A DNA stretch of 64,000 nucleotides from Flectonema sp. DT1601. Taxonomy: Eukaryota. The notes below the pieces were generated by a model. It made no database searches. It was not told where the DNA came from and saw nothing but the letters and a program-made list of their open reading frames with translations. The DNA is taken from positions 1,302,001-1,366,000 of the forward strand of contig OZ025781.1 of assembly GCA_964019425.1 (NCBI GenBank). Reading direction: 5' to 3'. How positions within the stretch are numbered: position 1 is the first letter of the stretch; every line of letters starts with the position of its first letter. A program made the position numbers and the translations under genes. Below are positions 71 to 36,748 of the stretch, piece after piece.

Positions 71-371
71 ATTTTTGTGAATGCACCAGAATCGCCAGAC
101 AGTGCTCATATGTTCTGTTCCAGACGAGGAACCTCCCCACGTGGCATTCAAGACCTCTAATGCGCAGCATTAAAGAAGAACCTGCCACTGCAAGTTTTAT
201 AAAAGATGGTAAAGAAATCTTCCCTGTAGAAGAAGTCAAAATCCACAAAGTAACAAAACTGAAAACGATCGAAAAGCTCACCATTGAAAGATCGTGGCTT
301 GAGAAATGTTTTATCTGGCAAACTTGTTACGCATCGGCTCTTTCTATTCTACTTATTGCCAATTATGCCAA

Positions 372-1773
372 CTGGTAAATTCAACTCAGTCCTTGTCAGT
401 TTTGGCATCAAACCTGTAATGGTTTAATCATTACAGGTTATTTACTGAAATATTTGTTCTAAAAGTTGCTAAGTATTTCTCACTTAGAAATTTTTTATTT
501 TTTTATTTTCAGCTTAATTAGCTACAAATTGTTTCTACTAAGTGTTTCTCACTTAGATTTTTTTTTTGCTTTTCAGCTCCTTAAAAGCTGCTAAGTGTTT
601 CTGCTAAGTGTTTCTCACTTAGAATTTTATTGTTATGTTCGTTTTCTATCCCCTCTTCTATCCCTTTTGTTCAAAAAAAGCGATGAGAAATTTCTCTCAT
701 TCATGCTAAGATGCACTCTGAACTTTGATTTTTTGATCTGAGTGTGAGGGAATGACCTGTTAGTGCATTGGACATAAGCTGTACAGCAGTTTAGATGTCT
801 TAGGTGTTAATAGGGGGTTCCTCTTAGCATTTTCCTTTGTTCCCACCTTATGATTTTCTTGAAGAAAAAAAATAGAAGTCATAATGGTGCTTCCCTCTGG
901 AAGGGTTGTAAGCCATGGTGTCCAACTAAATTAAAGGACAAGTCTGGGATAATCCCTGCCAGAGGGGCGAGTATTCTACCATGGTTGAAATACTCTGGCA
1001 ACTGATCTTCAATTTTATGTTGTTTGTTAGCTGCTGGTGTAATTTAATCATGTGTTGATACTTGCATTTATTTATTTGTTATCTTTTACTACAATAACTC
1101 TTGCCTATATCTTTTCTTTTTATTCTCTATCTGTTCTGGTCTGTTACTTCATTTGTCTTGTTTAACTTCAGTTATATGCATTTTACTTTTTATTGTTTCC
1201 CATCTACTTTTTATTTTCTGTTAGTTCTGGTCAGAAACTCCTGGGCAGCAAGAAGGAAAGCAGTTTAGTACTTCTGGGTGTTTGGCATCACCCCCCATAG
1301 TGAGCAAGTACAACAGGTAGCATTGGTAGTCTGTTGATCCTGAGTGATCCCAGCTACAGTTTTGTTTTTCTTTCTTTTTTTTAGAAGAAGATCAGGACAT
1401 CCAAGCACTGCTGGATAGTTGCTGAATGCAGGGCCTGCCTGTGGCATTATAATAACAGGCTAAGTCATTTGTAGTTCATAGTTTACCTTTGATTTTATAA
1501 CTTCACACAGGGTACTATGAACGATGAGAGATCCAGTGGGATCACTCAGGGTCTAGTAGAGACCACCAATGTTGTGCGTTGATAGGCAAGGTGACCAACC
1601 TTGACATTCTTTCTTTTCTCTCCTGTTGTGACAAACACAAAATACACACACAGCTTACAGTGTGTTCTTTGTGTATGTTTTCTTCAGGTGTGAGTAGTTT
1701 TTTTGTTCTTGCTCTTCAGGGAGGGCCTTAGCCAAAAGCTAACAGTCCAAATCTCACCTGGTAAATTCAACTC
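372..1773 (+). mobile_element. Family A non-coding element, one full ~1.39 kb unit preceded by 16 bp of the previous unit's tail
   Basis: Begins and ends with CTGGTAAATTCAACTC; near-identical to segments at 8401-10512 (inverted), 21497-22214, 28796-29589 and 31167-31517; 3' hairpin at 1723-1748. Confidence 0.85.
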
Positions 1774-1800
1774 GGGTCTTCCTCCCCGGCCCCTTCTGTT

Positions 1801-3249
1801 TTGTTAGATGAGGATGAGCTCACTGGACTCTCCTTGTCATTCTCTTCTATTTCTTCCATCTCTTTCCAGACTCCCCCACCTGAACTCACGTCAACGGGAT
1901 CGCAAACACTCCCTACTGATTTTGCTATGGTGTTAAGATGTCAATCTGACATTGGTTCTCAAACCCCCTTGTACAAAGAAAAAAAAGGAAGATTAAGGCT
2001 GAAACTTTCCTTGAAATGCCAGATTTTAGAAAACGAATTAGAACAAATGAAAGAACGAATTTTTTATGTTCTATTTTTATTTTACTTTAATGCGATGTCA
2101 GCCTCCCTCGAGAAAGACAAGCAGTTACTAAACGGATTACCTGTTGAGATCAAAGCTACCAACCAGGATCCATCCTCACTTCCTCCTGCGCCCCCTGTTT
2201 TAATTATTGAAAAAGATAGAAAAGAATATGAACTTCTGGAAGGAGTAATTCAACGGTTAACAGTAGAACGCGATGAATCGAAGACTTCTCTTTCCGCACT
2301 AGTTCGTCAATATGACTTAGTGGAAGATTACAGGAAACGTGAGCTCGCAAATCTGACTCAGAAAGCAGACCTATCGGAAATGGCGCTTTTCAATTACCAT
2401 CAAAGGTTTGTTCTTCTGTCGAACGAATTGGAGACCAAATGTAATGAGGAAAGAGAAAGTAAAATAAGACTTTTCTATACTCAACAGGAGGTCGAGAGTT
2501 TGCGTGCCGCACGTCCCCACATGACCCACTTTAGTCAACAAGTTTCCCCCCGATCCCCTATTTTGTATGAATCTGTTGCTATGATGAAGATAGCAAAGAA
2601 CTACCTCTCGCTCTTTACAACTACGAGTAGTCTTTTTACTCCTCTTATTAAACCCCTTATCCCTACCCTTAATTATATCACCCCTCTTTGTCCTTTAGCC
2701 TCAATTCCTCCGACAATGCCGCAGAGTGAAGCTCTCGACCGCACGCCGACCAAGATTTTACGACAAGAGAGCCACGTTATCTCCGTTAAAGAGAATACAC
2801 CTATTGCGAGACAATGGTCCGAGGGTAGGATTGACTTACTCGAGAACTACTGTCGAGCAGTAGATGACTCTCTCGAAACAAACGAGAAAGCGGCAGAGCT
2901 CTCAGAACAACTTTTGGATGCCCAACTTCGCCTCTCGGAGCTGAATCACCAACGGTGTACAACTCACGCAGAGCAGCTTGAGCAATCCATGATGTTAACG
3001 GGACTGGCGAGCGATTTAAATGCTCAACTCGCCTTGGCACGGTCTCAAATTGCGGCCCTGAAGTTCCAATTAGCTTCATGGGCAGAAGGTTTGAGTCCGC
3101 CAGACACAGAAGAACATGAGGAAATTGAAACTCCGCCGAGAAAGTCTGAGCGTTCAACTCTGAAAAAACGGACCCCTCCATCAAGATATCGTTATAATCG
3201 AAGGAGATGTTCTGCTGATGACGTTCACGGTGACTCCACCCCCTTGTAA
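1801..3249 (+). CDS. Hypothetical coiled-coil protein inside the repeat chain (probable ATG at 2095, ~384 aa)
   Basis: 1.4 kb open frame with E/K/L/Q-rich heptad-like blocks and a basic C-terminus; no family recognised. Confidence 0.5.
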   Translation: MLDEDELTGLSLSFSSISSISFQTPPPELTSTGSQTLPTDFAMVLRCQSDIGSQTPLYKEKKGRLRLKLSLKCQILENELEQMKERIFYVLFLFYFNAMSASLEKDKQLLNGLPVEIKATNQDPSSLPPAPPVLIIEKDRKEYELLEGVIQRLTVERDESKTSLSALVRQYDLVEDYRKRELANLTQKADLSEMALFNYHQRFVLLSNELETKCNEERESKIRLFYTQQEVESLRAARPHMTHFSQQVSPRSPILYESVAMMKIAKNYLSLFTTTSSLFTPLIKPLIPTLNYITPLCPLASIPPTMPQSEALDRTPTKILRQESHVISVKENTPIARQWSEGRIDLLENYCRAVDDSLETNEKAAELSEQLLDAQLRLSELNHQRCTTHAEQLEQSMMLTGLASDLNAQLALARSQIAALKFQLASWAEGLSPPDTEEHEEIETPPRKSERSTLKKRTPPSRYRYNRRRCSADDVHGDSTPL

Positions 3250-3645
3250 TTCTTTTTCCTTACTTTCACATCACTTTGTTTATTTAGTTTATTAGCTTAT
3301 TTATTATTTATTGTTCGTTTTGTTTGTAATATTTTGTCGATATGTTTATGTCCGTCAGATCATAACGTTAATCAGATTAATTGTTAATTGTTAATTGTAA
3401 ATGGTCTAAACCCCAATCCAAGTTCCCAAGGCTTGGCATAGATTTGAGTGACGCCTTACTGGCCTCCTCATCCTCTATGAGTGGTGAGGGGGCCAGCAAT
3501 GGTTTTTTTTTTTTTTTCTCTTATCTCTTTTTTTTCTTTTTCTTTTACTCTAATATGAAATATTTTTGAACAAAATGTGATTATTAATTTAAAAAAAAAA
3601 AAAAAAAAAATAATGTAAATGAATAATAAAAAAAAAAAAAACATG

Positions 3646-3934
3646 CCTTGGGAATACAACCAAAGCCCCAATTAATCGGTCCTTTCTTTTTTCCTTCTTG
3701 TCAAGTGATCGCTCCACTCGTCGATCACCAAAACCGATTGTATTTATATCTGTTCTTTTCTCAACGATCGGCTATACCGATCATTTTTTTTTTAAATAAT
3801 TGTTTTCTTCTTCTCGACGATCAGATCCAATTGATCGACCTTTTTTTTTTTTTTTTTTTTTTTCCTTTATTCTTTCCATCCCTCCCGCTCCCCTTATTTT
3901 AATAAAAACAAGATCAGCTCAGCTTGATCGTTAA

Positions 3935-3966
<32 letters not shown>

Positions 3967-6900
3967 CTGATTGTATTTATATCTGGTTATTTTTTCTCAA
4001 CGATCGGCTATGCCGATCGACCTTTAAAATAATTGTCTTCTTCTTCTCGACGATCAGATCCAATTGATCGACCTTTTCTTTTTTTTTCCTTTATTCCTCC
4101 CATCCCTCCCGCTCCCCTTATTTTAATAAAAACAAGATCAGCTCAGCTTGATCGTTATTTTTTTTTTTTTTTTTTGTTGGTCCTAGTCAAGACCTTAAAC
4201 TGACTAATCGGTCTTAACTTTAACTAAGTGAATGAACCCTTCCCGTTTTCCTCTTCCCTTTATTACTCTCTATCTGGTCTGTTATGTCATAAATCTCATT
4301 TAATTTTATCATTCATTTTAATTTTCACTGTTTCCCATCTACATTTTATTTTCAAATAGTTCCGGTCTGTCTTTAATGTTAAATAAAACTGATCATGTTA
4401 ACTCAATTTTTCTTTTATGTGCAAGAGATACCAACACGCAAGAGATACCAACGCACATACGAGATACCAGCACTTCCGAGATACCGACACACAAGAGATA
4501 CCAAGACACTTAAGATACCAGCAAGGACAATGAGAGGTAGAATGAACTCTCCTCCTTGTGTCCGATCCTGATTATTTTTTGTTGAATTGGTAGTGTTACC
4601 TCAGTTTGCGACTCTCGTATCTGTGTTGTGTTAACTCATGTAAGTGATCTTAACTCCTGTTAAAAAATAAATAAAAAGAATTTAAAATAAAAAAAAAAAA
4701 GAATAAACAATGTTATCATTGTTTTTTGTATCGTTCGACTTTGTCGACTAATTTCTATTTTCAGTTTTTTTCTTTAAAAAATAAATAAAAAGAATTTAAA
4801 ATAAAAAAAAAGAATAAACAATGTTATCATTGTTTTCTTACCGATCGACTATGTCGATTACTTTCTATTTTCCGTCCTGGTCAAGACGCTAAACTGATTG
4901 TTTTTTTTTTTTTCAAAATTAATAAAAAAGAATAAAAAAAAAAAAAAAATAAAAAAAAGAATAAACAATGTTATCATTGTTTTTTTTTTCATCGTTCGAC
5001 TTTGTCGACTAATTTCTATTTTCCGTTTTTTTTTTCTTTAAAAAATAAATAAAAAGAATTTAAAATAAAAAAAAAGAATAAACAATGTTATCATTGTTTT
5101 TTTATCGATCGACTATGTCGATCACTTTCTATTTTCCGTCCTGGTCAAGACGCTAAACTGATTGTTTTTTTTTTTATAAATAAAAAGAAATAAAAAAAAA
5201 AAAAAAAGAATAAACAATGTTATCATTGTTTTTTTATCGTTCGACTTTGTCGACTAATTTCTATTTTCAGTTTTTTTTCTTTAAAAAATAAATAAAAAGA
5301 ATTTAAAATAAAAAAAAAAGAATAAACAATGTTATCATTGTTTTCTTATCGATCGACTATGTCGATTACTTTCTATTTTCCGTCCTGGTCAAGACGCTAA
5401 ACTGATTGTTTTTTTTTCAAAATTAATAAAAAAGAATAAAAAAAAAAAAAAAATAAAAAAAAGAATAAACAATGTTATCATTGTTTTTTTTCATCGTTCG
5501 ACTTTGTCGACTAATTTCTATTTTCCGTTTTTTTTTTCTTTAAAAAATAAATAAAAAGAATTTAAAATAAAAAAAAAGAATAAACAATGTTATCATTGTT
5601 TTTTTATCGATCGACTATGTCGATCACTTTCTATTTTCCGTCCTGGTCAAGACGCTAAACTGATTGTTTTTTTTTTATAAATAAAAAGAAATAAAAAAAA
5701 AAAAAAAAGAATAAACAATGTTATCATTGTTTTTTTATCGTTCGACTTTGTCGACTAATTTCTATTTTCCGTTTTTTTTCCTTTAAAAAATAAATAAAAA
5801 GAATTTAAAAAAAAAAGAATAAACAATGTTATCATTGTTTTTTTTTATCGTTCGACTTTGTCGACTAATTTCTATTTTCCGTCCTGGTCAAGACGCTAAA
5901 CTGATTGTTTTTTTTTTTCAAAATTAATAAAAAAGAATATAAAAAAAAAAAAAATAAAAAAAAGAATAAACAATGTTATCATTGTTTTTCTTTTTATCGG
6001 ACTAATTTCTATTTTCCGTTTCTTTTCTTTAAAAAATAAATAAAAAGAATTTAAAATAAAAAAAAAGAATAAACAATGTTATCATTGTTTTTTTTATCGT
6101 TCGACTTTGTCGACTAATTTCTATTTTCAGTTTTTTTCTTTAAAAAATAAATAAAAAGATTTTAAAATAAAAAAAAAGAATAAACAATGTTATCATTGTT
6201 TTTTTTATCGATCGACTATGTCGATTACTTTCTATTTTCCGTCCTGGTCAAGACGCTAAACTGATTGTTTTTTTTTTTTCAAAATTAATAAAAAAGAATA
6301 TAAAAAAAAAATAAAAAAAGAATAAACAATGTTATCATTGTTTTTTTTATCGTTCGACTTTGTCGACTAATTTCTATTTTCAGTTTTTTTTTCTTTAAAA
6401 AATAAATAAAAAGAATTTAAAATAAAAAAAAAAGAATAAACAATGTTATCATTGTTTTCTTATCGATCGACTATGTCGATTACTTTCTATTTTCCGTCCT
6501 GGTCAAGACGCTAAACTGATTGTTTTTTTTTTCAAATTAATAAAAAAGAATAAAAAAAAAAAATAAAAAAAAAGAATAAACAATGTTATCATTGTTTTTT
6601 TTCATCGTTCGACTTTGTCGACTAATATCTATTTTCCTTTTTTTTTCTTTAAAAAATAAATAAAAAGAATTTAAAATAAAAAAAAAGAATAAACAATGTT
6701 ATCATTGTTTTTTTATCGATCGACTATGTCGATCACTTTCTATTTTCCGTCCTGGTCAAGACGCTAAACTGATTGTTTTTTTTTCAAAATTAATAAAAAA
6801 GAATAAACAATGTTATCATTGTTTTTTTTTTTTATCGTTCGACTTTGTTGACTAATTTCTATTTTCCGTTTTTTTTTCTTTTTAAAAAATAAATAAAAAG

Positions 6901-7817
6901 AATTTAAAAAAAAAAAAAAAAAAGAATAAACAATGTTATCATTGTTTTTTTTTATCGATCGACTATGTCGATTACTTTCTATTTTCCGTCCTGGTCAAAA
7001 CGCTAAACTGATTGTTTTTTTTTTTTTTCAAAATTAATAAAAAAGAATATAAAAAAAATACAAAAAAAAGAATAAACAATGTTATCATTGTTTTTTTTTA
7101 TCGTTCGACTTTGTCGACTAATTTCTATTTTCCGTTTTTTTTCTTTAAAAAATAAATAAAAAGAATTTAAAATAAAAAAAAAGAATAAACAATATTATCA
7201 TTGTTTTCTTATCGATCGACTATGTCGATCGCTTTCTATTTTCCGTCCTGGTCAAGACGCTAAACTGATTGTTTTTTTTTTCAAAATTAATTAAAAAAAA
7301 TATAAAAAAAATAAAAAAAAAGAATAAACAATGTTATCATTGTTTTTTTACCGTTCGACTTTGTCGACTAATTTCTATTTTCCGTTTTTTTTTTTTTTTT
7401 TTTTTTCTTTAAAAAATAAATAAAAAGAATTTAAAAAAAAAAAAAAAGATTAAACAATGTTATCATTGTTTTTTTATCGATCGACTATGTCGATTACTTT
7501 CTATTTTCCGTCCTGGTCAAGACGCTAAACTGATTGTTTTTTTTTTTCAAAATTAATAAAAAAGAATATAAAAAAAAACAAAAAAAAAAAGAATAAACAA
7601 TGTTATCATTGTTTTTTTTTATCGTTCGACTTTGTCGACTAATTTTTATTTTCCGTTTTTTTCTTTAAAAAATAAATAATAAGAATTTAAAAAAAAAAAA
7701 AAAAGAATAAACAATGTTATCATTGTTTTTTTATCGATCGACTATGTCGATCACTTTCTATTTTCCGTCCTGGTCAAGACGCTAAACTGATTGTTTTTTC
7801 TTTAAAATAATTAAAAG

Positions 7818-7863
<46 letters not shown>

Positions 7864-8400
7864 AATGTTATCATTGTTTTTTTTTCTATCGATCGACTAT
7901 GTCGATTAATTTCTATTTTCCGTCCCGATCGAGACGCTAAACTGATTGTTTCCTTTTTTTTAAATAATAAAAAAAAAAAAAAAAAAGAGCATCTCCCTGC
8001 TATCCTCATATCCCCACAATAATATTATACCTTTTCATTTTCTCTTTCCTTTTCTGGTCTTTTTTTTTTTTTTTCTTCTTTTTTTTCCTTTTTCATACAA
8101 CGTTTTTTATTTATATTTTATTTTTTTTTTTTATTTTTTTCATGTTTGATTATTTCCTCTTCATATTTTTTTTTTTTTTTTTCGTTTCTTTCTTTTTTTT
8201 TTTTTTTTTTCTCTGCCTCTCTCTTAATTCTGTTCGTTTCTTTGAAACGAAAATTCATTTGAATATTATTCCTTGGTCAGCAACAGTCATTGTCGCCCTC
8301 TGGGCCTGTTAAAAAAAAAAAAAATAAAAAGAAAGTTTACATCGGGAATAGGGCAGGAGCCAAAAGCTCCCAGTCCGTTACTTCCCACTCTATCGAATTC
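3646..8400 (+). mobile_element. Family B non-coding element: unique 5' part, central satellite, 3' tail with CAAAA hairpin
   Basis: Colinear with 10511-14925; 5' part recurs at 35229-35575; 3' tail recurs ending at 14925, 19476 and ~28796. Confidence 0.8.
4661..7985 (+). repeat. B satellite array (alternating ~95 and ~125 bp monomers)
   Basis: Tandem AATAAACAATGTTATCATTGTTT / TCGACT(A/T)TGTCGA / CGTCCTGGTCAAGACG blocks separated by A and T runs. Confidence 0.95.
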
Positions 8401-10512
8401 GTAGAAACAATTTGTAGCTAATTAAGCTGAAAATAAAAAAATAAAAAATTTCTAAGTGAGAAATACTTAGCAACTTTTAGAACAAATATTTCAGTAAATA
8501 ACCTGTAATGATTAAACCATTACAAGTTTGATGCCAAAACTGACAAAGACTGAGTTGAATTTCCAGGTGAGATTTGGACTGTTAGCTTTTGGCTAAGGCC
8601 CTCCCTGAAGAGCAAGAACAAAAAAACTACTCACACCTGAAGAAAACATACACAAAGAACACACTGTAAGCTGTGCGTGTATTTTGTGTTTGTCACAACA
8701 GGAGAGAAAAGAAAGAATGTCAAGGTTGATCACCTTGCCTATCAACGCACAACATTGGTGGTCTCTACTAGACCCTGAGTGATCCCACTGGATCTCTCAT
8801 CGTTCATAGTACCCTGTGTGAAGTTATAAAATCAAAGGTAAACTATGAACTACAAATGACTTAGCCTGTTATTATAATGCCACAGGCAGGCCCTGCATTC
8901 AGCAACTATCCAGCAGTGCTTGGATGTCCTGATCTTCTTCTAAAAAAAAGAAAGAAAAACAAAACTGTAGCTGGGATCACTCAGGATCAACAGACTACCA
9001 ATGCTACCTGTTGTACTTGCTCACTATGGGGGGTGATGCCAAACACCCAGAAGTACTAAACTGCTTTCCTTCTTGCTGCCCAGGAGTTTCTGACCAGAAC
9101 TAATAGAAAATAAAAAGTAGATGGGAAACAATAAAAAGTAAAATGGATATAACTGAAGTTAAACAAGACAAATGAAGTAACAGACCAGAACAGAAAGAGG
9201 ATTGTAATAGAAGATTACAAATAAAAAAATGCAAGTATCAACACATAATCAAGATACACCAGCAGCTAACAAACAACATAAAATTGAAGATCAGTTGCCA
9301 GAGTATTTCAACCATGGTAGAATACTCGCCCCTCTGGCAGGGATTATCCCAGACTTGTCCTTTAATCTAGTTGGACACCATGGCTTACAACCCTTCCAGA
9401 GGGAAGCACCATTATGACTTCTATTTTTTTTCTTCAAGAAAATCATAAGGTGGGAACAAAGAAAAATGCTAAGAGGAACCCCCTATTAACACCTAAGACA
9501 TCTAAACTGCAGCCCAGCCTATGCCCAATGCACTAACAGGTCATTCCCTCACACTCAGATCAAAAAATCAAAGTTCAGAGTGCATCTTAGCGTGAATGAG
9601 AGAATTTCCTCCCGCTTATTTTGAACAAAAGGGATAGGAGAAGGGATAGAAAACGAACATAAAAATAAAATTCTAAGTGAGAAACACTTAGCAGAAACAC
9701 TTAGCAGCTTTTAAGGAGCTGAAGAGCAAAAAAAAAAATCTAAGTGAGAAACACTTAGTAGAAACAATTTGTAGCTAATTAAGCTGAAAATAAAAAAATA
9801 AAAAATTTCTAAGTGAGAAATACTTAGCAACTTTTAGAACAAATATTTCAGTAAATAACCTGTAATGATTAAACCATTACAAGTTTGATGCCAAAACTGA
9901 CAAAGACTGAGTTGAATTTCCAGGTGAGATTTGGACTGTTAGCTTTTGGCTAAGGCCCTCCCTGAAGAGCAAGAACAAAAAAACTACTCACACCTGAAGA
10001 AAACATACACAAAGAACACACTGTAAGCTGTGCGTGTATTTTGTGTTTGTCACAACAGGAGAGAAAAGAAAGAATGTCAAGGTTGATCACCTTGCCTATC
10101 AACGCACAACATTGGTGGTCTCTACTAGACCCTGAGTGATCCCACTGGATCTCTCATCGTTCATAGTACCCTGTGTGAAGTTATAAAATCAAAGGTAAAC
10201 TATGAACTACAAATGACTTAGCCTGTTATTATAATGCCACAGGCAGGCCCTGCATTCAGCAACTATCCAGCAGTGCTTGGATGTCCTGATCTTCTTCTAA
10301 AAAAAAGAAAGAAAAACAAAACTGTAGCTGGGATCACTCAGGATCAACAGACTACCAATGCTACCTGTTGTACTTGCTCACTATGGGGGGTGATGCCAAA
10401 CACCCAGAAGTACTAAACTGCTTTCCTTCTTGCTGCCCAGGAGTTTCTGACCAGAACTAATAGAAAATAAAAAGTAGATGGGAAACAATAAAAAGTAAAA
10501 TGGATATAACTG
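8401..10512 (-). mobile_element. Family A, inverted head-to-tail ~1.55-mer (period 1357 bp)
   Basis: Identical ORF calls at 8877 and 10234 are 1357 bp apart; reverse complement of 372-1773. Confidence 0.9.
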
Positions 10513-24620: not shown

Positions 24621-25432
24621 CAGTTGCAAATTTGTTTTTTCAGGTTGGACTTTGTACGGAACAGGCGGGCTTTTATTAGGGGCTCCCCCCTTGGGGGGGG
24701 TTGGGGGGGGGGGGGGGCTTGCGTCCCGCCAAGAATTTGGCGGACGCAAGCCACCCTTGCACTCTTCCCAGCTTGGTAGGCTAAAAAACAAAAAACCCGC
24801 CGCAAGCCAAATTTTTGGGTCAAGTTCGAGTCCTGGTGGACAACTTTTTTTTGTAGGGAGTTGGCGATTTCGCAAACTATTTTTGTTGAATTAGAGGTTT
24901 TCCCTTGTTTTTTTTATCGATCGACTATGTCGATTACTTTCTATTTTCCGTCCTGGTCAGGACGCTAAACTGATTGTTTTTTCTTTAAAAATAAATAAAA
25001 AGAATAAAAAAAAAAAAAAAAGGAATAAACAATGTTATCATTGTTTTTTTTTTATCGATCGACTATGTCGATTACTTACTATTTTCCGTCCTGGTCAAGA
25101 CGCTAAACTGATTGTTTTTTCTTTAAAACAATTAAAAAGGTTTAAAAAAAAAAAAAAAAAAAAAAATGAATAAACAATGTTATCATTGTTTTTTTTTCTA
25201 TCGATCAACTATGTCGATTAATTTCTATTTTCCGTCCTGATCGAGACGCTAAACTGATTGTTTCCTTTTTTTAAATAATAAATAAGAAAAAAAAAAAAAA
25301 AAAAAAAGAGCATCTCCCTGCTATCCCTCATATCCCCACAATAATATTATACCTTTTCATTTTCTCTTTCCTTTTCTGGTCTTTTTTTTTTCTTTTTTTT
25401 CCTTTTTCATACAACGTTTTTTATTTATATAT

Positions 25433-27092
25433 TAGTCATTCCAAAAATAACCGGCCGCGAAAACCAGTTTTGCTTCGAGCAGCCATTGGTCAAAAATGCA
25501 TCCATTTTCGAGATTTTTTACGAGGTGGAAAGGTTCGGCCCCAATCTCTGATTTTACGCGGTGGGATTATTTTTTTTTCACTTTTTTTACTGACCGTTAG
25601 AACCCGACAGGTGCGTTATGGGTACTAAGAGAATGTCACTGTCGGCATGGAAAAGTTAATCCTGTTGCTGCATTTAATTTTTTTCTGGAAAAAAAAGGGA
25701 AATGCATCAGAGATTGGCATTTTTTCTCATAACTACACTTATTATTCCCTTAAGCACCAGCTTAAACTTCTCTCAATGAAGTGTCACACGTGCCACGAGA
25801 TGCCAGCTGAGTGCTCCTCAGACAACTACAACTGCACCTCGCACACTAACGCGAAAAGACGGAATCCGAAGTTCAACAAGCTTCTTGAGCCACTTCGCGG
25901 TAGTCTTGAAATCCCGGCGTATGCTCCTCTGCGCTCAATCTGCAACGCTTGCTACCAGCGAGCAAAAAGGCTGACTAGTGATCCGCATTACGCATCCGTC
26001 AGTATCCCTGCAGAGCCGATCAATCCGGAACCGCTCTCAGATATTTTTGAACGCGTGAAAGAATCAGTTCCTGCTGTCCGTTCTCAGTTTTTGAGACTCT
26101 GTCTCACGCTAGGCTACACTGATAGCCAGATTAATGCCCATGTCAGGGATTCTTCAATGCGTAAGCAGCTACAGAGGCTGGAACAGCACGATCCCTCCCA
26201 ATCAGTAAAGCAGCGCAGCCAAGACAGAGATATCTGGAACTTCTGGATTTCCAATGCACGCCCTGAGTCAAACCGCGTGGTCCTCAGCAAAGACTACATA
26301 ACCGGCGAGACAAGTAAAGAAACAGTCCTCTATGTAAGAGAACCATACCTTGCCTTGTGGAGTGCCTTCTGCAGAACTCACACAGCTATCTCATATCCTC
26401 AGTTTTGTGACAAAAGGCCTGCTCATGTCAAATCTTGTCCGAATAACCCTCGATGCCGTTGCAGGTGGCACATGCAAATTGCACTTATCCTTCCTGCTTA
26501 TATAAGACTTGTGGGCCTGAGAAGATTTCAGCTAACCCGCTTGAGTGACCACCTACCACTCATACTATGTCGAGACCCGTCTTACAACTGCTTCTTTGGC
26601 CACTGAATCTAGTTCTAGTTCCAGTTTCAGATCGCTGCGTTCAACTAGTTCTATTATCGGTTCATTGCCGGTAGGAAAACGAAGAAAGCCAGCAGTAAAA
26701 GTTGCCAAAAGAGCTAAGCCTAATCAAAAATAAAAATAAGCTAAGTGTAGTGTAAGATGTACAAGGTACTGTTTTGCTTCGAGCAGCCTTTGTAACTGTT
26801 TCAGAGTAAAACATCCGACCAGGTACGGCCGGATATAGAACCATATACCGATCTTTCATTTTAGCACCCGGGGCAGCCGATTAGACATCAACAGTTCCAT
26901 TATTCAAAATTTTCACCACACAAAAATGTCACAATTTTTTTGAATTTTAGCTGCATTTTTTTGAATCGCAGCGGGAATGAAATCAGCGGTGCAAAAGCGA
27001 TTAAAATGGGTATTCGGTTTTAAGTTTTACTCCCTATTTTCACCTATGAAATACTGGAACCCTAAAATGGACGGTTATTTTTGGAATGACTA
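25433..27092 (+). mobile_element. TIR DNA transposon (21 bp TIR TAGTCATTCCAAAAATAACCG) with truncated transposase
   Basis: Perfect TIRs and ATAT flanks; terminal AGTCATTCC shared with the 18414 MITE. Confidence 0.85.
25776..26606 (+). pseudogene. N-terminal part of a probable Sola-type transposase; catalytic domain apparently deleted
   Basis: ISYPQFCDKRPAHV...CRCRWH...LC...C resembles the F..xRP..V / CxCxxH region I recall upstream of the DDD core in Sola2-like transposases; lies between TIRs. Confidence 0.5.
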
Positions 27093-27100
27093 ATATATAT

Positions 27101-28511
27101 GAGGACGTGCCAAAAGTAGGGCCTATTTTGTACCACGGGTAACTGCTGGCCTCTAAATCTTGGTCTGAGCACTTTTTTGGCCCACTCTGTATATTAGAAA
27201 ACTCAATTCCGGGTCTGGGATACAACTTTACTTGTCACCAGTTCAAAAATTCTGCAATTTTTAGGGGAAATTGACTGTATTACACTGTAAGATGCTTGTG
27301 CACAGTTGAGACCAATTTGTAAGGTAGTAGTAGGAGAGTGTCACTCGCTTGAATCACAGCTTCACAAATAACAATGACAATTAAGGATACTCTAGAACGA
27401 GAGCCACTGTGACGGGCATTTCGGCAGCATATCAAATGTCATCCAGACCTCATCGAGAGTGGGCACCGGTGCGTACCCTCACCGAGGTGGCAGGCGTACT
27501 CCGAACGCTCAGCGACACAACACTTGTATTCCTCTTCTTTGAAGAGCAAGAAGTGAGTGTGCAGAACCTCCGCATCCCAGCCGTAACCAGCATCCCCACC
27601 TACCGAAAGGATACTTCAGGTCAGATATATATCACAGCTTTCTCTGACGAAAACCCGCAATTTGCACTTGACGGAGGTAAGGCTACTTTGCTACTGAACC
27701 ACAAGCCCAAAATATCAGATAAGCTTCCCCTTACTAGAGCTGAGAAGAGCACTATTGGATCTACACCCCTTGACACAACCGCGGACAACAACAAGTTTGC
27801 AGAGATAGAGCACAGTCAGCATATCGATTCCCTGAAGAATAAACGAGCAAGAAAAGAAGCCTTTTTTGAAAGGTTAGACAGGGAGCACACCATCCAACAA
27901 CGAGCCTGCAAACGGAAAAGTGCCCCCGCCGAGAAGCCTGTTAGAAAGAAGCGCCAATGCAGCCAGTGCAGCTCTCTTACTCATGATCTCCGAAATTGTC
28001 CAGACCGTCGTTCTGAACCCGAAAGCTCTGATTCAAGTAGCAGTGTAACCCCTTAAAAAACATAAGTGTGTACAACATTATTAGTAAGTTAGTGTAGGTG
28101 CAGAATGCACACGAATGATCAATATCAGTCCATCAGTCCTCTTAGCTTCGCTGCTTGTGCCAAAACTTACGTATTAATTTTGTCATGCAGTTTCTAAATT
28201 CATCGGATGGGGATGAGTCTGCTTGCCCAGGATATGGAGTTCGACAGCCACGGAGAACAATGCATCTAATTACAGAGGTCTGATATGTGAAGTAAACCTG
28301 CCCCCTGTGTGTGTACTGCATAACACAGTAATACAGTCAATTTCCCCTAAAAATTGCAGAATTTTTGAACTGGTGACAAGTAAAGTTGTATCCCAGACCC
28401 GGAATTGAGTTTTCTAATATACAGAGTGGGCCAAAAAAGTGCTCAGACCAAGATTTAGAGGCCGGCAGTTACCCGTGGTACAAAATGGTACCCTACTTTT
28501 GGCATCCTCTC
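27101..28511 (+). mobile_element. TIR DNA transposon with GAG...CTC termini and ~190 bp TIRs
   Basis: 27101-~27290 mirrors ~28325-28511; TIR related to the 16623 element (GAGGAC.TG.CAAAAGT; TCAATTCCGGGT.TGGGAT); (AT)n flanks. Confidence 0.9.
27409..28056 (+). CDS. Transposon-borne ORF with basic NLS-like patch and C-terminal CCHC zinc knuckle
   Basis: RKKRQCSQCSSLTHDLRNCP fits C-x2-C-x4-H-x4-C; start codon uncertain. Confidence 0.5.
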   Translation: MTGISAAYQMSSRPHREWAPVRTLTEVAGVLRTLSDTTLVFLFFEEQEVSVQNLRIPAVTSIPTYRKDTSGQIYITAFSDENPQFALDGGKATLLLNHKPKISDKLPLTRAEKSTIGSTPLDTTADNNKFAEIEHSQHIDSLKNKRARKEAFFERLDREHTIQQRACKRKSAPAEKPVRKKRQCSQCSSLTHDLRNCPDRRSEPESSDSSSSVTP

Positions 28512-28573
28512 ATATATATATATTTTTTTTTTTTTTTTCATGTTTGATTATTTCCTCTTCATTTTTTTTTTTC

Positions 28574-28605
<32 letters not shown>

Positions 28606-28795
28606 CTCTGCCTCTCTCTTAATTCTGTTCGTTTCTTTGAAACGAAAATTCATTTGAATATTATTCCTTGGTCAGCAACCATCATTGTCGCCCTTTGGGC
28701 CTGTTAAAAAAAAATAAAAATAAAAAGAAAGTTTACATCGGGAATAGGGCAGGAGCCAAAAGCTCCCAGTCCGTTACTTCCCACTTTATCGAAAT

Positions 28796-30532
28796 CCATG
28801 GTTGAAATACTCTGGCAACTGATCTTCAATTTTATGTTGTTTGTTAGCTGCTGGTGTATCTTGATCATGTGTTGATACTTGCATTTTTTTATTTGTAATC
28901 TTCTATTACAATCACTCTTGCCTATATCTTTTCTTTTTATTCTCTTTCTGTTCTGGTCTGTTACTTCATTTGTCTTGTTTAACTTCAGTTATATCCATTT
29001 TACTTTTTATTGTTTCCCATCTACTTTTTATTTTCTATTAGTTCTGGTCAGAAACTCCTGGGCAGCAAGAAGGAAAGCAGTTTAGTACTTCTGGGTGTTT
29101 GGCATCACCCCCCATAGTGAGCAAGTACAACAGGTAGCATTGGTAGTCTGTTGATCCTGAGTGATCCCAGCTACAGTTTTGTTTTTCTTTCTTTTTTTTA
29201 GAAGAAGATCAGGACATCCTAGCACTGCTGGATAGTTGCTGAATGCAGGGCCTGCCTGTGGCATTATAATAACAGGCTAAGTCATTTGTAGTTCATAGTT
29301 TACCTTTGATTTTATAACTTCACACAGGGTACTATGAACGATGAGAGATCCAGTGGGATCACTCAGGGTCTAGTAGAGACCACCAATGTTGTGTGTTGAT
29401 AGGCAAGGTGACCAACCTTGACATTCTTTCTTTTCTCTCCTGTTGTGACAAACACAAAATACACACACAGCTTACAGTGTGTTCTTTGTGTATGTTTTCT
29501 TCAGGTGTGAGTAGTTTTTTTGTTCTTGCTCTTCAGGGAGGGCCTTAGCCAAAAGCTAACAGTCCAAATCTCACCTGGTAACTTAACTCGACCCTGAGTG
29601 ATCCCACTGGATCTCTCATCGTTCATAGTACCTATGTGAAGTTATAAAATCTAAGGTAAACTATGAACTACAAATGACTTAGCCTGTTATTATAATGCCA
29701 CAGGCAGGCCCTGCATTCAGCAACTATCCAGCAGTGCTTGGATGTCCTGATCTTCTTCTAAAAAAAAGAAAGAAAAACAAAACTGTAGCTGGGATCACTC
29801 AGGATCAACAGACTACCAATGCTACCTGTTGTACTTGCTCACTATGGGGGGTGATGCCAAACACCCAGAAGTACTAAACTGCTTTCCTTCTTGCTGCCCA
29901 GGAGTTTCTGACCAGAACTAATAGAAAATAAAAAGTAGATGGGAAACAATAAAAAGTAAAATGGATATAACTGAAGTTAAACAAGACAAATGAAGTAACA
30001 GACCAGAACAGAAAGAGAATTGTAATAGAAGATTACAAATAAAAAAATGCAAGTATCAACACATGATCAAGATACACCAGCAGCTAACAAACAACATAAA
30101 ATTGAAGATCAGTTGCCAGAGTATTTCAACCATGGTAGAATACTCGCCCCTCTGGCAGGGATTATCCCAGACTTGTCCTTTAATTTAGTTGGACACCATG
30201 GCTTACAACCCTTCCAGAGGGAAGCACCATTATGACCTCTATTTTTTTTCTTCAAGAAAATCATAAGGTGGGAACAAAGAAAAATGCTAAGAGGAACCCC
30301 TTATTAACACCTAAGACATCTAAACTGCAGCCCAGCTTATGCCCAATGCACTAACAGGTCATTCCCTCACACTCAGATCAAAAAATCAAAGTTCAGAGTG
30401 CATCTTAGCGTGAATGAGAGAATTTCCTCCCGCTTTTTTTGAACAAAAGGGATAGGAGAAGGGATAGAAAACGAACATAACAATAAGATTCTAAGTGAGA
30501 AACACTTAGCAGAAACACTTAGCAGCTTTTAA
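28796..30532. mobile_element. Family A sense copy (28796-29589) followed by an antisense copy (29590-30532)
   Basis: Mirror-image 60 aa ORF calls at 29082-29264 (-) and 29695-29877 (+). Confidence 0.85.
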
Positions 30533-31078
30533 TAATAAGAATTTAAAAAAAAAAAAAAAGAATAAACAATGTTATCATTGTTTTTTTATCGATCGACTAT
30601 GTCGATCGCTTTCTATTTTCCGTCCTGGTCAAGACGCTAAACTGATTGTTTTTTCTTTAAAATAATAAAAAGGATTAAAAAAAAGGAAAAAAAAAAAAAA
30701 AAAAGAATAAACAATTGTATCATTGTTTTTTTATCGATCGACTATGTCGATTACTTTCTATTTTCCGTCCTGGTCAAGACGCTAAACTGATTGTTTTTTT
30801 TTTCAAAATTAATAAATAAGAATATAAAAAAAAAACAAAAAAAAAAAGAATAAACAATGTTATCATTGTTTTTTTTTATCGTTCGACTTTGTCGACTAAT
30901 TTTTATTTTCCGTTTTTTTTTTCTTTAAAAAATAAATAATAAGAATTTAAAAAAAAAAAAAAAGAATAAACAATGTTATCATTGTTTTTTTATCGATCGA
31001 CTATGTCGATCGCTTTCTATTTTCCGTCCTGGTCAAGACGCTAAACTGATTGTTTTTTCTTTAAAATAATAAAAAGGA

Positions 31079-31110
<32 letters not shown>

Positions 31111-31166
31111 TAAACAATGTTATCATTGTTTTTTTATCGATCGACTATGTCGATCACTTTCTATTT
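30533..31166 (+). repeat. B satellite
   Basis: Tandem monomers. Confidence 0.9.
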
Positions 31167-31517
31167 CTGAATGCAGGGCCTGCCTGTGGCATTATAATAA
31201 CAGGCTAAGTCATTTTTAGTTCATAGTTTACCTTTGATTTTATAACTTCACACAGGGTACTATGAACGATGAGAGATCCAGTGGGATCACTCAGGGTCTA
31301 GTAGAGACCACCAATGTTGTGCGTTGATAGGCAAGGTGACCAACCTTGACATTCTTTCTTTTCTCTCCTGTTGTGACAAACACAAAATACACACACAGCT
31401 TACAGTGTGTTCTTTGTGTATGTTTTCTTCAGGTGTGAGTAGTTTTTTTGTTCTTGCTCTTCAGGGAGGGCCTTAGCCAAAAGCTAACAGTCCAAATCTC
31501 ACCTGGTAAACTCAACT
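31167..31517 (+). mobile_element. Family A 3' fragment
   Basis: Ends CTGGTAAACTCAACT. Confidence 0.8.
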
Positions 31518-34295
31518 ATTTTTTAAAGAAAAAAAAAACGGAAAATAAAAATTAGTCGACAAAGTCGAACGATAAAAAAAAACAATGATAACATTGTTTA
31601 TTCTTTTTTTTTTGTTTTTTTTTTATATTCTTATTTATTAATTTTGAAAAAAAAAACAATCAGTTTAGCGTCTTGACCAGGACGGAAAATAGAAAGTAAT
31701 CGACATAGTTGATCGATAAAAAAACAATGATAACATTGTTTATTCTTTTTTTTTTAAATTCTTTTTATTTATTTTTTAAAGAAAAAAAAACGGAAAATAG
31801 AAATTAGTCGACAAAGTCGAACGATAAAAAAACAATGATAACATTGTTTATTCTTTTTTTTTTTATTTTTTTTATATTTTTTTTTAATTAATTTTGAAAA
31901 AAAAAAACAATCAGTTTAGCGTCTTGACCAGGACGGAAAATAGAAAGTGATCGACATAGTCGATCGATAAGAAAACAATGATAACATTGTTTATTCTTTT
32001 TTTTTTTCATTTTAAATTCTTTTTATTAATTTTTAAAGAAAAAAAACGGAAAATAGAAATTAGTCGACAAAGTCGAACGAGAAAAAAAAACAATGATAAC
32101 ATTGTTTATTCTTTTTTTTGTATTTTTTTTATATTCTTTTCTATTAATTTTGAAAAAAAAAACAATCAGTTTTGCGTCTTGACCAGGACGGAAAATAGAA
32201 AGTGATCGACATAGTCGATCGATAAAAAAAACAATGATAATATTGTTTATTCTTTTTTTTTTTTTTTTTTTTTAAATTCTTTTTATTTATTTTTTAAAGA
32301 AAAAAATGGAAAATAGAAAATAGTCAACAAAGTCGAACGATAAAAAAAAACAATGATAACATTGTTTATTCTATTTTTTTATTTTTTTTTTTTTTTCTAT
32401 TCTTTTTTATTAATTTTGAAGAAAAAAAAAACAATCAGTTTAGCGTCTTGACCAGGACGGAAAATAGAAAGTAATCGACATAGTCGATCGATAAAAAAAA
32501 AAAAACAATGATAACATTGTTTATTCTTTTTTATTTTTTTTAAATTCTTTTTATTTATTTTTTAAAAAGAAAAACGGAAAGTAGAAATTAGTCAACAAAG
32601 TCGAACGATAAAAAAAAAACAATGATAACATTGTTTATTCTTTTTTTTTTATTTTTTTTATATTCTTTTTTATTAATTTTTAAAAAAAAAACAATCAGTG
32701 TAGCGTCTTGACCAGGACGGAAAATAGAAAGTGATCGACATAGTCGATCGATAAAAAAACAATGATAACATTGTTTATTCTTTTTTTTTTTTTTTTAAAT
32801 TCTTATTATTTATTTTTTAAAGAAAAAAAAACGGAAAATAAAAATTAGTCGACAAAGTCGAACGATAAAAAAAAACAATGATAACATTGTTTATTCTTTT
32901 TTTTTTTATTTTAAATTCTTTTTATTAATTTTTAAAGAAAAAAAACGGAAAATAGAAATTAGTCGACAAAGTCGAACGATAAAAAAAAACAATGATTACA
33001 TTGTTTATTCTTTTTTTTGTATTTTTTTTATATTCTTTTTTATTAATTTTGAAAAAAAAAACAATCAGTTTAGCGTCTTGACCAGGACGGAAAATAGAAA
33101 GTGATCGACATAGTCGATCGATAAAAAAAAAAACAATGATAATATTGTTTATTCTTTTTTTTTTTTATTTTAAATTCTTTTTTATTAATCGACATAGTCG
33201 ATCGATAAAAAAAAACAATGATAACATTGTTTATTCCTTTTTTTTTTTTTTATATTCTTTTTCATTAATTTTGAAAAAAAAAACAAGACGGTAAATAGAA
33301 AGTAATCGACATAGTCGATCGATAAAAAAACAATGATAACATTGTTTATTCTTTTTTTTTTTTTTTTAAATTCTTATTATTTATTTTTTAAAGAAAAAAA
33401 AACGGAAAATAAAAATTAGTCGACAAAGTCGAACGATAAAAAAAAACAATGATAACATTGTTTATTCTTTTTTTTTTTATTTTAAATTCTTTTTATTAAT
33501 TTTTAAAGAAAAAAAACGGAAAATAGAAATTAGTCGACAAAGTCGAACGATAAAAAAAAACAATGATTACATTGTTTATTCTTTTTTTTGTATTTTTTTT
33601 ATATTCTTTTTTATTAATTTTGAAAAAAAAAACAATCAGTTTAGCGTCTTGACCAGGACGGAAAATAGAAAGTGATCGACATAGTCGATCGATAAAAAAA
33701 AAAACAATGATAATATTGTTTATTCTTTTTTTTTTTTTTTTTTTTTAAATTCTTTTTATTTATTTTTTAAAGAAAAAAATGGAAAATAGAAAATAGTCAA
33801 CAAAGTCGAACGATAAAAAAAAACAATGATAACATTGTTTATTCTATTTTTTTATTTTTTTTTTTTTTTCTATTCTTTTTTATTAATTTTGAAGAAAAAA
33901 AAAACAATCAGTTTAGCGTCTTGACCAGGACGGAAAATAGAAAGTAATCGACATAGTCGATCGATAAAAAAAACAATGATAACATTGTTTATTCTTTTTT
34001 TTTTTTTTTATTTTTTTTTTCTATTCTTTTTTATTAATTTTGAAGAAAAAAAAAACAATCAGTTTAGCGTCTTGACCAGGACGGAAAATAGAAAGTGATC
34101 GACATAGTCGATCGATAAAAAAAAACAATGATAACATTGTTTATTCTTTTTTATTTTTTTAAAATTTTTTTTATTTATTTTTTAAAAAGAAAAAAAAACG
34201 GAAAATAGAAATTAGTCAACAAAGTCGAACGATAAAAAAACAATGATAACATTGTTTATTCTTTTTTTTTTTTTTTTATTTCTTTTTATTTATTA
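31518..34295 (-). repeat. B satellite, inverted array
   Basis: Reverse-complement monomers throughout. Confidence 0.95.
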
Positions 34296-35228
34296 AAAGG
34301 GCGAACAGAAACCTTCAAACTAAACGATGGCATCTAAAGGTTTTCGACTACTTGCTGAAAGTTGCTATCCGGGAAGAATGTACGAAGGGGAAGACCCCTG
34401 CACTCACAACAACATCAAAATTGAAGAGGCGCAAGGAGTCATAAGAACTGAGCTTATTTTTGTCTTTGGTGGTGTTTTCATTTGTTCTGTTCACCCTTTA
34501 GGTGGTGAATGTGTGTGTATTTTTAACGGGCAGGCAATGGCGGTTCACTTTGTCACATCACCTTTCCGAGCCCCCCTACCCCTTTTCCCCGTTAGCTCTT
34601 TTTTCAAAAAAAGTCAAAAAACCGGGTTTTACCCCCGTCCGTAATGGGTTAACTAAAAAATTATCATCAGCTTGGAACCCAATGATTACACTCACTTGTT
34701 TCTACCCCAATGAATTACCTCTCATTGTCTCTCAAGCAATATCAATATGGGTTGTCAGGCTGTCTCCTGGCAGAGATGGGAGGAGTAATGGAAAGACACC
34801 ACAGCACAGAACAGTGTGAACGAGAATGAGCCCCCTCAGTGATTAAACCCACCGCACACGCGATGCGCCGGTCCAAAGTCCGGAACCTCACCACAAGCGA
34901 TGATCAAGAAGGGTGATGGGTCACTGGGCACAAGCGATGCCCATTTAGTTGTCAAAGTGACATGTATGGCAAACTGAACAGGTTTGACATCGCACAGCAC
35001 ACCAGCACCAACGGTACCATCTGGATATCACTCACTTTTTTCACTAGAATTCACACATTTTCACACATTTTCACAGGATTTCACACATTTTCACACATTT
35101 TCACAGGATTTCACTACCAGAAAGCAGCAAAAAATTAAGTGAAAAATCGTGAAAAATCGTGAAAAATCGTGAATTTTCGTGTAGCAAAGTGAAAAATCGT
35201 GAACACCTCCACCCTGCCGATCGCCTCA

Positions 35229-35575
35229 CTTGAGAATACAACCAAAGCCCCAACTAATCGGTCCTTTCTTTTTCCTTCTTGTTAATTGATCGCTCCACTC
35301 GTCGATCACCAAAACCGATTGTATTTATATCTGTTTTATAAACGATCGGCTATGTCGATCGACCTTTAAAATAATTGTTTTCTTTTTCTCGACGATCAGA
35401 TCCAATTGATCGACCTTTTCTTTTTTTTTCTTTATTCCTCCCATCCCTCCCGCTCCCCTATTTTTAATAAAAGCGTGATCAGCTCAGCTTGATCGTTAAT
35501 TTTTTTTTTTTTATTTATTGCTGGTCCTAGTCAAGACCTTAAACTGACTAATCGGTCTTAAATTAACTAAGTATT
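35229..35575 (+). repeat. Diverged 5' part of family B
   Basis: Matches 3647-3750 and ~4000-4229. Confidence 0.75.
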
Positions 35576-36045
35576 AACTTAGTTTAGCAGAAATGCAAAA
35601 TTTTCACTTAGCAAAAATTTTTTTTTTCAGACTGATATATCAGCTCCGGTGGTGTAAGGGTTAAAAAAAAAAAAAAAAAAAGAATAAACAATGTTATCAT
35701 TGTTTTTTTTATCGATCGACTACTGTAAAGGGAAATATTCTCGCGGATTTGGAGATTTTTTTTCAAACTCGCGGGTTTTTCCCCACAAGAATATTTCCCT
35801 ACCACAGAGGATTTTTGCGAAAGCCAGCCGTTGATCAAAAATCTTGGAAATCTTTGAGCTTCCCTCGAGTGTCAGGTAGAACAAAGCACTATTGCACTTC
35901 GAAGCCGGATGAAATGAAGGAATATGAATGATGCCTTGTTGTTTAAAGGGAAGTGCTTACTCCGCAACCCACTATTTTTTTCTCTTCCAGCCGAACAACA
36001 TGTCAAACGATGAATTGAGAGGCGTCCTCGTCAGCAATCACCCTG

Positions 36046-36290
36046 TTGTCGGAGAATGTCTGGGAGGTGCGTAGGACCCGATCGAGCGTAGTGCGATTGC
36101 AGGAGGGGCTTGTCGTTCGTGAGTGCCCTCAGTATCGAAGATTCAATCTTCCATGCACTCATGCTATCAAGGTGCTGATACATCAGGGGCACAATATACT
36201 AACACATTCCACTGCCTTGCCATCCTTTGCCATGATGGATAACTTTCGAATTCCAATTTTACTCAGCTACCGTGTTCCACAATTCACCAT
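36046..36290 (+). pseudogene. SWIM zinc-finger fragment of a MULE-type transposase
   Basis: ECPQYRRFNLPCTHAIKV resembles the SWIM CxC...LPCxH motif, with the first Cys lost. Confidence 0.55.
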
Positions 36291-36748
36291 CAGATGTATG
36301 ATGCACGCGGGGGAGGGAATGTCTGTGGTGTTACATTTTTTATGGATGAAAGTGATCACAACACAAGAGAACAAACTACCTTACACGTTTTGTATGCCAA
36401 TGCCAATGCAGCGGGTTACTCAGGAAGCCTTCGCAATGCAACTTTCAAGAGCACCAATCACTATACTGTTCAAATCCAGCACCCTGAACCTCAAGAACTC
36501 CACAAGTACTTGAATCCACGGCACAACAGGAATATTCGTGAGAACGAAAACTTCAATAGCTACCTTCCTAATTAGTAGATTAAAAACCTAAACAGCAAAG
36601 CTTACCATCGAAGATATTGTATGGTAAAGGTATTCTTTAAGTCTTGTACATGCTAAAAAAGTACCTTCACCCGGAGTCGAACCTAGGCATAAATGTCCTG
36701 CGAATGTCTCGTGAATTTTATTTTCGTGTAAAGTCCCTGTTGTTGGGT

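Follow-up and report, generated by a model that had tools for sequence, protein, structure and literature searches.

The 64,000-nucleotide window analyzed here (positions 1,302,001 to 1,366,000 of contig OZ025781.1 in the Flectonema sp. DT1601 assembly GCA_964019425.1) contains repetitive elements in its left part and host genes in its right part. Positions 1–34294 are composed of 7.7 kb of element A, 16.7 kb of element B, 2.2 kb of element C, 0.8 kb of element D, and 6.9 kb of elements with inverted repeats (Table 1). Host genes begin near 38.9 kb, and all ten of the open reading frames (ORFs) of at least 230 codons located there are on the forward strand. The gene for an EFL-type elongation factor is at 41016–42627 (+), and the best named match of its exon is from Diplonema papillatum (89%). 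The sequence of this exon indicates that the host of the A/B/C/D cluster is a diplonemid. The 34-kb region is probably a pile of mutually nested copies of one R2-type retrotransposon, composed of C and B and called C-B here, and of two elements without proteins, A and D.

The 3′ ends of the pieces share a stem-loop. A degenerate pattern describing this terminal structure has 13 matches in the window and none in 100 shuffles, and a covariance model returns the same 13 stem-loops, with none other above E 0.79. Ten of them mark free 3′ ends, all on the forward strand (1773, 8400, 14925, 15993, 19475, 20262, 22214, 28796, 29589, and 31517). The distance from the start of the loop to the end of the piece is 39–41 nucleotides in every case, which shows that the ten right-facing ends recognized in the original prediction are real. 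The other three stem-loops lie in internal head-to-tail joints of A, at 8552 and 9909 on the reverse strand and at 21102 on the forward strand. Elements A, B, and D fold the same hairpin of 9 pairs and 27 nucleotides. All 72 cells of the stem-loop alignment are paired, and three of the nine pairs are altered on both sides, although the eight rows represent three families only. The end at 20262 belongs to the third family, D, and not to A or B. The DNA following the ends is an inverted family piece in five cases (8400, 14925, 20262, 29589, and 31517), precisely those named before, and a parallel piece in the other five. Another 11 junctions in the interval 70–34294 do not represent 3′ ends. The ten ends have no A tail, and none of them carries a hammerhead or a reverse-complement telomere repeat; Rfam scans detected no hammerhead. 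The stem-loop pattern was found at no locus in metagenome and viral contigs.

Element C encodes the likely enzyme of the cluster. The last 588 codons of its ORF are present in the window (71–363 and 1774–3246, corresponding to residues 409–996 of protein P0052), split by an insertion of A. The ORF at 1765–3249 matched two proteins, both of which run from the peptide encoded by 71–363 directly into the peptide encoded from 1774 onwards, and the site of the A insertion is read straight across by 25 of the 25 stored proteins covering it. Longer members of the C family contain the Pfam domains RVT_1 and zf-RVT. In a comparison with the PDB, the reverse transcriptase (RT) of the family (P0049) matched R2 proteins best, with an E value of 6.6e-33, compared to 3.8e-20 for LINE-1. 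A CCHC zinc knuckle and the endonuclease motif RPD..ELT..K are kept in 14 of 14 aligned C proteins, after the RT and in the same ORF. These features indicate that C is a non-long-terminal-repeat retrotransposon of the R2 group with a restriction-like endonuclease, the latter predicted by its motif. The original prediction was correct in that the RT domain is absent from the window; however, the endonuclease-less, Penelope-like system that it proposed does not agree with the R2-like RT and the restriction-like endonuclease motif of C. Among the candidate clades HERO, NeSL, and CRE, element C may resemble HERO.

One contig from sequencing run X1 spans 2079–3497 and 3651–3829 and thereby ties the ORF of C to the start of B. 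Element B passes through a satellite of about 110/145 bp (4660–7986, 3.3 kb) to the stem-loop end, and does so in two copies in the window. Therefore, B is the satellite-bearing 3′ untranslated region (UTR) of the autonomous element C and not a non-autonomous RNA, which corrects the earlier view that only non-autonomous RNAs were involved. The C family is abundant. Its proteins form clusters of 14, 47, and 235 members, among which the listed ones were examined; the 56 listed proteins are encoded on at least 47 distinct contigs, 40 of them at least 150 kb long. Fifty-three family proteins from other loci carry 38 terminal tails, 17 of which translate A, B, the satellite, or a further element, E. 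On other contigs, C is adjoined by stem-loop ends at eight distinct sites, with antiparallel orientation in five and parallel orientation in three, a count that is biased by gene calling. A query with the RT yielded no confirmed loci in metagenomes.

Approximately 590 in-frame residues follow the endonuclease of C. Long helices are predicted in this extension at low confidence (predicted local distance difference test score of 42, in a sister subfamily). The extension belongs to no Pfam family and resembles only generic coiled-coil proteins, in searches that did not include a fold search with the model. Sequence searches with it retrieved its own family only, and the best matching stretches of distant relatives mostly end near residue 900 of P0049. 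Subfamilies P0030/P0036 and P0046/P0052 have near-identical RT and endonuclease regions; however, the coiled-coil extensions are only ~58% identical, which suggests that the tail may have been swapped or may be evolving fast.

According to the original prediction, the region is a polarized chain of end-joined elements that resembles chains in which 3′ ends are attached to truncated 5′ ends. The joints were analyzed by asking whether the DNA to the left of each piece resumes to the right of its 3′ end. Contigs with empty sites, obtained from four other sequencing runs, represent other copies of the families and not the window locus. For the end at 1773, contigs of all four runs contain the empty site, in which 363 is joined to 1777 with 3–6 letters in between. 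Removing 71–8401 restores A across the end at 8400 (50 of 50 letters), and removing the A piece that ends at 22214 restores the satellite with a loss of 1 nucleotide. Matches in satellite register are weak when taken alone, as the non-nested pair 31165/15994 also matched among 110 pairings. The ends at 1773, 8400, and 22214 thus close blunt insertions, of which two are parallel and one is antiparallel; the target resumes past the insert instead of being truncated. No target duplication is present at these three ends, for which a left flank can be found, in agreement with the earlier observation. The two innermost insertions nest exactly, with A 364–1773 inside C-B 71–8401, which is inside the inverted A at the left edge of the window. 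The flanks of the piece ending at 28796 are both forward-strand A and are 458 nucleotides apart. The ends at 29589 and 31517 are inversion points; the inverted piece starts where the forward block on its left starts (A 1168 versus 1170, and satellite matching at 49 of 50 letters after flipping). An origin of 29590–30531 by fold-back copying from the neighboring arm was rejected, because this piece lacks a 28-bp segment of 28797–29589 and differs from the latter at six sites. Classical twin priming fits 20263–21102 only.

A chain made purely by end joining does not describe the region, because three of its ends close ordinary insertions and 11 junctions are not 3′ ends. The polarity and the ends themselves hold, whereas the 11 other junctions, five inverted-repeat insertions, and the pieces of an ORF for an RT-endonuclease had been overlooked.

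Element A is a 1388-nucleotide unit with exact head-to-tail joints, three of which are internal joints in the window. The units of the A multimer at 8402–10513 have no differences over 598 and 147 nucleotides. Element A closes into a cycle in contigs of three of the four other runs, and D does so in one (run X3, 1280 nucleotides); such contigs fit tandem arrays or circles equally. The predicted fold of A is more stable than those of shuffled sequences (z −10.0 with 20 shuffles and z −3.8 with 100 shuffles), and that of D has a z of −3.0. One structured module (1456–1537) is formed in A and D by the same stems built from different letters, with nine matches compared to none in 100 shuffles. It has no match in Rfam and does not occur in viral contigs. 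No Rfam ribozyme was detected in A or D at E values up to 5, and by-eye fits of the module to a hammerhead or twister core failed. Three of 14 breakpoints in A are within 3 nucleotides of each other at 1168–1170, 16 nucleotides past the module; the probability of this by chance is 0.004 if the breakpoints are independent. However, the two A pieces starting at 1168 may come from one source, because a private variant is common to both. A cut in the RNA at 1168/1170 would explain both the forward pieces that start at 1170 and the inverted pieces that start at 1168. A 120-bp stretch of A (1110–1232) is 75% identical to the unique 5′ part of B (4252–4367), which suggests that A may be derived in part from the UTR of the autonomous element. 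The enzyme of C likely copied A and D as well, because they share its 3′ end and the C-B unit moved by that same end.

The following mechanism most likely accounts for the pile. The C protein would bind the shared stem-loop, nick the DNA of its own family without strict sequence preference, and reverse-transcribe the RNA into the nick. At the RNA's 5′ end, the RT would jump to another template. The R2 RT is capable of such behavior, as it copies at least ten separate RNA or DNA templates serially and jumps only from the 5′ end (10.1101/2021.04.30.442027), and the junctions of R2 insertions are for the most part blunt, carrying small deletions or additional bases (PMC2718515). Template jumps would produce the identical head-to-tail units of A, the joints of an end to a truncated piece, and the inverted pieces whose start coincides with that of the other half of a broken RNA (A 1168/1170). 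If new copies landed mostly in the newest copy, near the left edge of the window, the window would represent the right half of an onion, in which forward layers expose their 3′ ends and reverse layers only their truncated 5′ sides. The one-way polarity would arise because new copies mostly enter the newest one. The insertions could be focused by a chromosome end, by a centromere, or by homology between RNA and DNA.

Simulations were scored by the absence of left-facing ends together with the presence of at least four inverted elements. This pattern arose in 2 of 7817 qualifying runs under uniform random nesting. When every insertion went into the most recent copy, the counts were 1594 of 1933 and 1927 of 1934. 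A strand bias by itself (2 and 6 of 1000 runs) and copying of read-through RNA (0–12 of 1000) were rejected as explanations. The polarity is non-random and agrees with insertions that repeatedly entered the newest copy, combined with template jumps. The earlier description was thus correct in treating the pieces as copies of RNAs that were made by reverse transcription, have a defined 3′ end, and are joined without duplication, with a polarity beyond that of chance nesting.

Several observations weigh against the interpretation of the region as a nested pile. The simulations are crude, and their length lists were taken from the window itself. The required focus of insertion is tight: a scale of 0.3 kb gave the pattern in 250 of 1000 runs, but scales of 1, 3, and 10 kb gave it in 19, 0, and 0 of 1000. 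The ends at 14925, 15993, 19475, and 20262 have no partner of their left flank in the window, and the left half of the nest that the model predicts is not seen in it. Inspection by eye revealed no target consensus among the ten right flanks, two of which are identical. The joints at 15776 and 20885 are duplicates, and some of the structure has therefore been copied as a block. Because the forward strand holds all three clean insertions as well as the one with the gap, and likewise the ten long ORFs to the right of 38 kb, an absolute strand bias may contribute to the polarity. Furthermore, among the 38 protein tails, 21 have no counterpart in the window; some of these are frameshifts or belong to a diverged subfamily.

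The strongest rival explanation, which we nevertheless regard as unlikely, is growth of a chromosome end. The same RT would extend a broken or uncapped left end from A, B, and D RNAs, jumping between templates while distal DNA is lost, and the ordinary insertions would be a later minority. Such growth yields polarity by construction, and it would accommodate the four of ten ends that are unpaired and two more without a distal target. One cluster per chromosome end would also be expected to place C proteins on as many large contigs as were found; however, that distribution is equally compatible with centromeres or dispersed clusters. Orientation with respect to the chromosome end is the same in the retrotransposons MoTeR and FoTeR. 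Age provides no discrimination: DNA transposons have inserted twice and three times in the outer B copies and never in the inner ones, and divergence is greatest in the outermost relic (86–90% identical), a gradient toward the genes that fits nesting and end growth alike. By contrast, the three true insertions and the 11 junctions that are not 3′ ends speak against end growth, and insertion near an end with distal loss, the only form of end growth simulated, was rejected because it gave the pattern in 0–4 of 1000 runs in six settings. The telomere repeat is missing as well: (TTAGGG)2 is absent from the window within one mismatch, as the original prediction stated, and from the ends, and no telomere-repeat translation was found in the 69 stored C family proteins screened.

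A more elaborate proposal, which we consider rather doubtful as a whole, is that A and D are self-processing, probably circular RNAs of 1.3–1.4 kb that parasitize the R2-type retrotransposon. An undescribed ribozyme, the 1456–1537 module, would cut A at 1168/1169, the stem-loop would recruit the RT, and the coiled-coil tail would steer all insertions to one chromosomal structure, an end or a centromere, hence the polarized, satellite-laden arrays on diplonemid chromosomes.

It is very improbable that a Penelope-like RT encoded elsewhere mobilizes A and D with C-B as cargo, because the stem-loop is the 3′ end of the unit 71–8401, a single mobilized piece containing an R2-type ORF, the C ORF is abundant in its three protein clusters, hammerheads are absent, and the inverted pieces come after a 3′ end and lack 3′ ends of their own. 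Misassembly or DNA-level rearrangement of a repeat array would agree with the duplicated joint (15776 and 20885) and with the failure of the four other runs to bridge any window junction, their contigs showing intact family members only; however, it hardly merits consideration, since ten breakpoints fall within 2 nucleotides of one position relative to the stem-loop, copies carry private variants, flanks rejoin exactly, and the same kinds of joints occur at other positions on other contigs.

As a nested pile, the cluster behaves like Cnl1 or MoTeR1/2, and it is a member of the R2 group rather than of the Penelope-like elements or HeT-A. The CRE-related Cnl1 of Cryptococcus enters its own copies and forms nested arrays of mostly 5′-truncated elements (PMC9942834), and self-nesting and truncated copies are also found here. 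The described Cnl1, 3.4 kb long, nests in tandem near telomere repeats, whereas five of the ten ends here are on inverted family DNA, and the cluster includes the partners A and D and a 3.3-kb satellite in the 3′ UTR. FoTeR of Fusarium encodes an RT and a restriction-like endonuclease and has uniform polarity with telomere motifs at its joints (PMC12857005). In Magnaporthe, MoTeR2 shares the 3′ sequence of MoTeR1, and the two form arrays of truncated copies for which transposition of composite cassettes has been proposed (10.1101/845669). The similarities to C-B are the RT with endonuclease, the uniform polarity, and a shorter partner sharing the 3′ end, as A and D do. However, MoTeR and FoTeR insert into telomere repeats and leave them at their joints, which contain none here, and no in-frame coiled-coil extension such as that of C is seen in the descriptions consulted. 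Element C resembles R2, HERO, and NeSL in domain order, fixed 3′ end, variable 5′ truncation, blunt joints, and putative template jumping, but differs in the ~590 residues past its endonuclease. The sequence-specific targeting of CRE, R2, R4, and NeSL was not found, as the ends adjoin C at eight different places; HERO includes many non-specific elements (PMC4640811).

Terminons contain an RT unit without an endonuclease and end in hammerheads and telomere-complementary repeats (PMC6431247, 10.1101/2021.04.23.441226). Athena/Terminon and HeT-A/TART elements, like the cluster, have 3′ ends facing one way, truncated 5′ sides, a 3′-terminal RNA fold, and coding capacity for coiled coils (PMC6431247). 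By contrast, the cluster has an endonuclease motif, an R2-like RT, and true internal insertions. The RT of the C family is not of the endonuclease-less Penelope type, and the cluster does not belong with Athena/Terminon because its ends lack hammerheads and telomere repeats. Similarly, HeT-A/TART arrays end in poly(A) and grow by end addition only, which does not agree with the missing A tails and the three true insertions. Elements A and D resemble non-LTR retrozymes in being non-coding, strongly structured, and arranged in head-to-tail units; however, they measure 1.3–1.4 kb, yielded no match to a hammerhead, and have their end in common with an R2-type element, while the retrozymes of animals are associated with Penelope elements (10.64898/2026.07.22.740005). 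The genome paper of D. papillatum names SLACS, R2-like, and TATE ORFs and defers their rigorous analysis (PMC10161547). A literature search in which most subscription papers were not covered found no description of comparable clusters in diplonemids, nor one of diplonemid chromosome ends and centromeres.

A single R2-type enzyme that apparently serves three RNAs sharing only a 27-nucleotide hairpin constitutes a compact natural system, and the hairpin offers a minimal signal for template recognition, open to testing, in a class of enzymes that is now applied to gene insertion. The region exhibits self-targeting without a target sequence, and a satellite that a retrotransposon carries and spreads in its 3′ UTR. 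Its strong polarity calls for nesting with a tight focus or, alternatively, for a chromosome end. Because the C family is present on dozens of large contigs, mapping it could mark diplonemid chromosome ends or centromeres.

Table 1 Pieces of the repetitive region, in window coordinates
Positions	Strand	Feature	Remarks
1–70	−	A, inverted (221 to 154 of the unit)	Left half of the multimer resuming at 8402; 50/50 match without 71–8401
71–363	+	5′-truncated C: end of endonuclease domain and start of C-terminal extension	P0052 residues 409–505, 97/97 identical
364–1773	+	Full A unit (386–1773), preceded by 16 nt of the end of the preceding unit and 8 extra nt	Blunt insertion into C ORF
1456–1537	+	Structured module kept in A and D	Precedes the A 1168/1170 breakpoint hot spot by 16 nt
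1722–1748	+	Terminal stem-loop common to A, B, and D (A copy)	
1774–3249	+	Remaining C ORF, coiled-coil extension	P0052 residues 506–996, 489/491 identical
3250–8400	+	B, 3′ UTR of C: unique part, satellite 4660–7986, unique 3′ part, stem-loop end	
8402–10513	−	Inverted head-to-tail A multimer (782–1388, 1–1388, 1–153)	Overlaps identical
10514–14925	+	B copy, 5′-truncated, with stem-loop end	Left flank absent from window
14926–15628	−	B satellite piece, inverted	
15629–15993	+	Composite: inverted A 668–521, then A 1170–1388 with end	Inversion joint as at 20885
15994–19475	+	B copy	Split at one TA run by inverted-repeat elements 16621–18405 and 18412–19190
19476–20262	+	D, 5′-truncated	Related to A, diverged; shares its stem-loop end
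20263–20885	−	A 1168–521, inverted	
20886–29589	+	A block from 1170 to stem-loop end	Contains B copy 21229–28796 (flanks A135 and A594)
21495–22214	+	A 641–1388, 5′-truncated	In-register insertion into B satellite, 1 nt lost
23701–24904	.	Inverted-repeat element with 9-bp target duplication	Large-subunit (LSU) rRNA fragments
25431–28519	.	Two inverted-repeat elements, 25431–27093 and 27094–28519	At the same B TA run as in the 15994–19475 copy
29590–30531	−	A 1168–173, inverted	Start corresponds to the start (1170) of the block on its left
30532–31517	+	Satellite piece and A 1034–1387 with end	
31518–34294	−	Satellite, inverted	Continuous with the start of 30530–31517 once that block is flipped, 49/50 match
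34295–35228	+	Element E, without the shared stem-loop	Twister-like motif 34840–34923
35229–35572	+	B relic, diverged, 86–90% identical	Outermost layer

The five insertions with terminal inverted repeats, 6.9 kb in total, split two copies of B. Four of them are distinct elements that occur in pairs at the same TA run in the 3′ part of B in the two copies; two have related repeats of ~190 bp and two have short related repeats. These four may be Sola-like and Tc1-like elements. The LSU rRNA fragments of the fifth element are located at 24255–24461 and 24563–24665; the element is presumably Pack-MULE-like, and its second fragment includes the presumed region of the R2 target site.

The right boundary of element E recurs beside C in protein P0002. 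The motif at 34840–34923 (+) in E is a full-length match to twister-P1; it scored 32.2 bits, short of the gathering score of 67.2, with an E value of 1.1e-4 in a local search, and its helices and both pseudoknots are pairable by eye. Twister variants are known in non-LTR elements of Schistosoma (PMC8501958).

At the edge of the cluster, 36019–36513 (+) has a weak match to a SWIM zinc finger (E 0.038, below the cut-off) and is possibly a Mutator remnant. The segment 36752–37660 (−) contains short broken ORFs without Pfam or credible PDB support, whose motifs may resemble a cysteine protease of Polinton type and a phospholipase-like domain. Proteins identical to the first exon of the EFL gene are encoded on at least three other large contigs. 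Farther to the right, 56395–58288 (+) encodes a cysteine-rich repeat protein with proline/threonine linkers.

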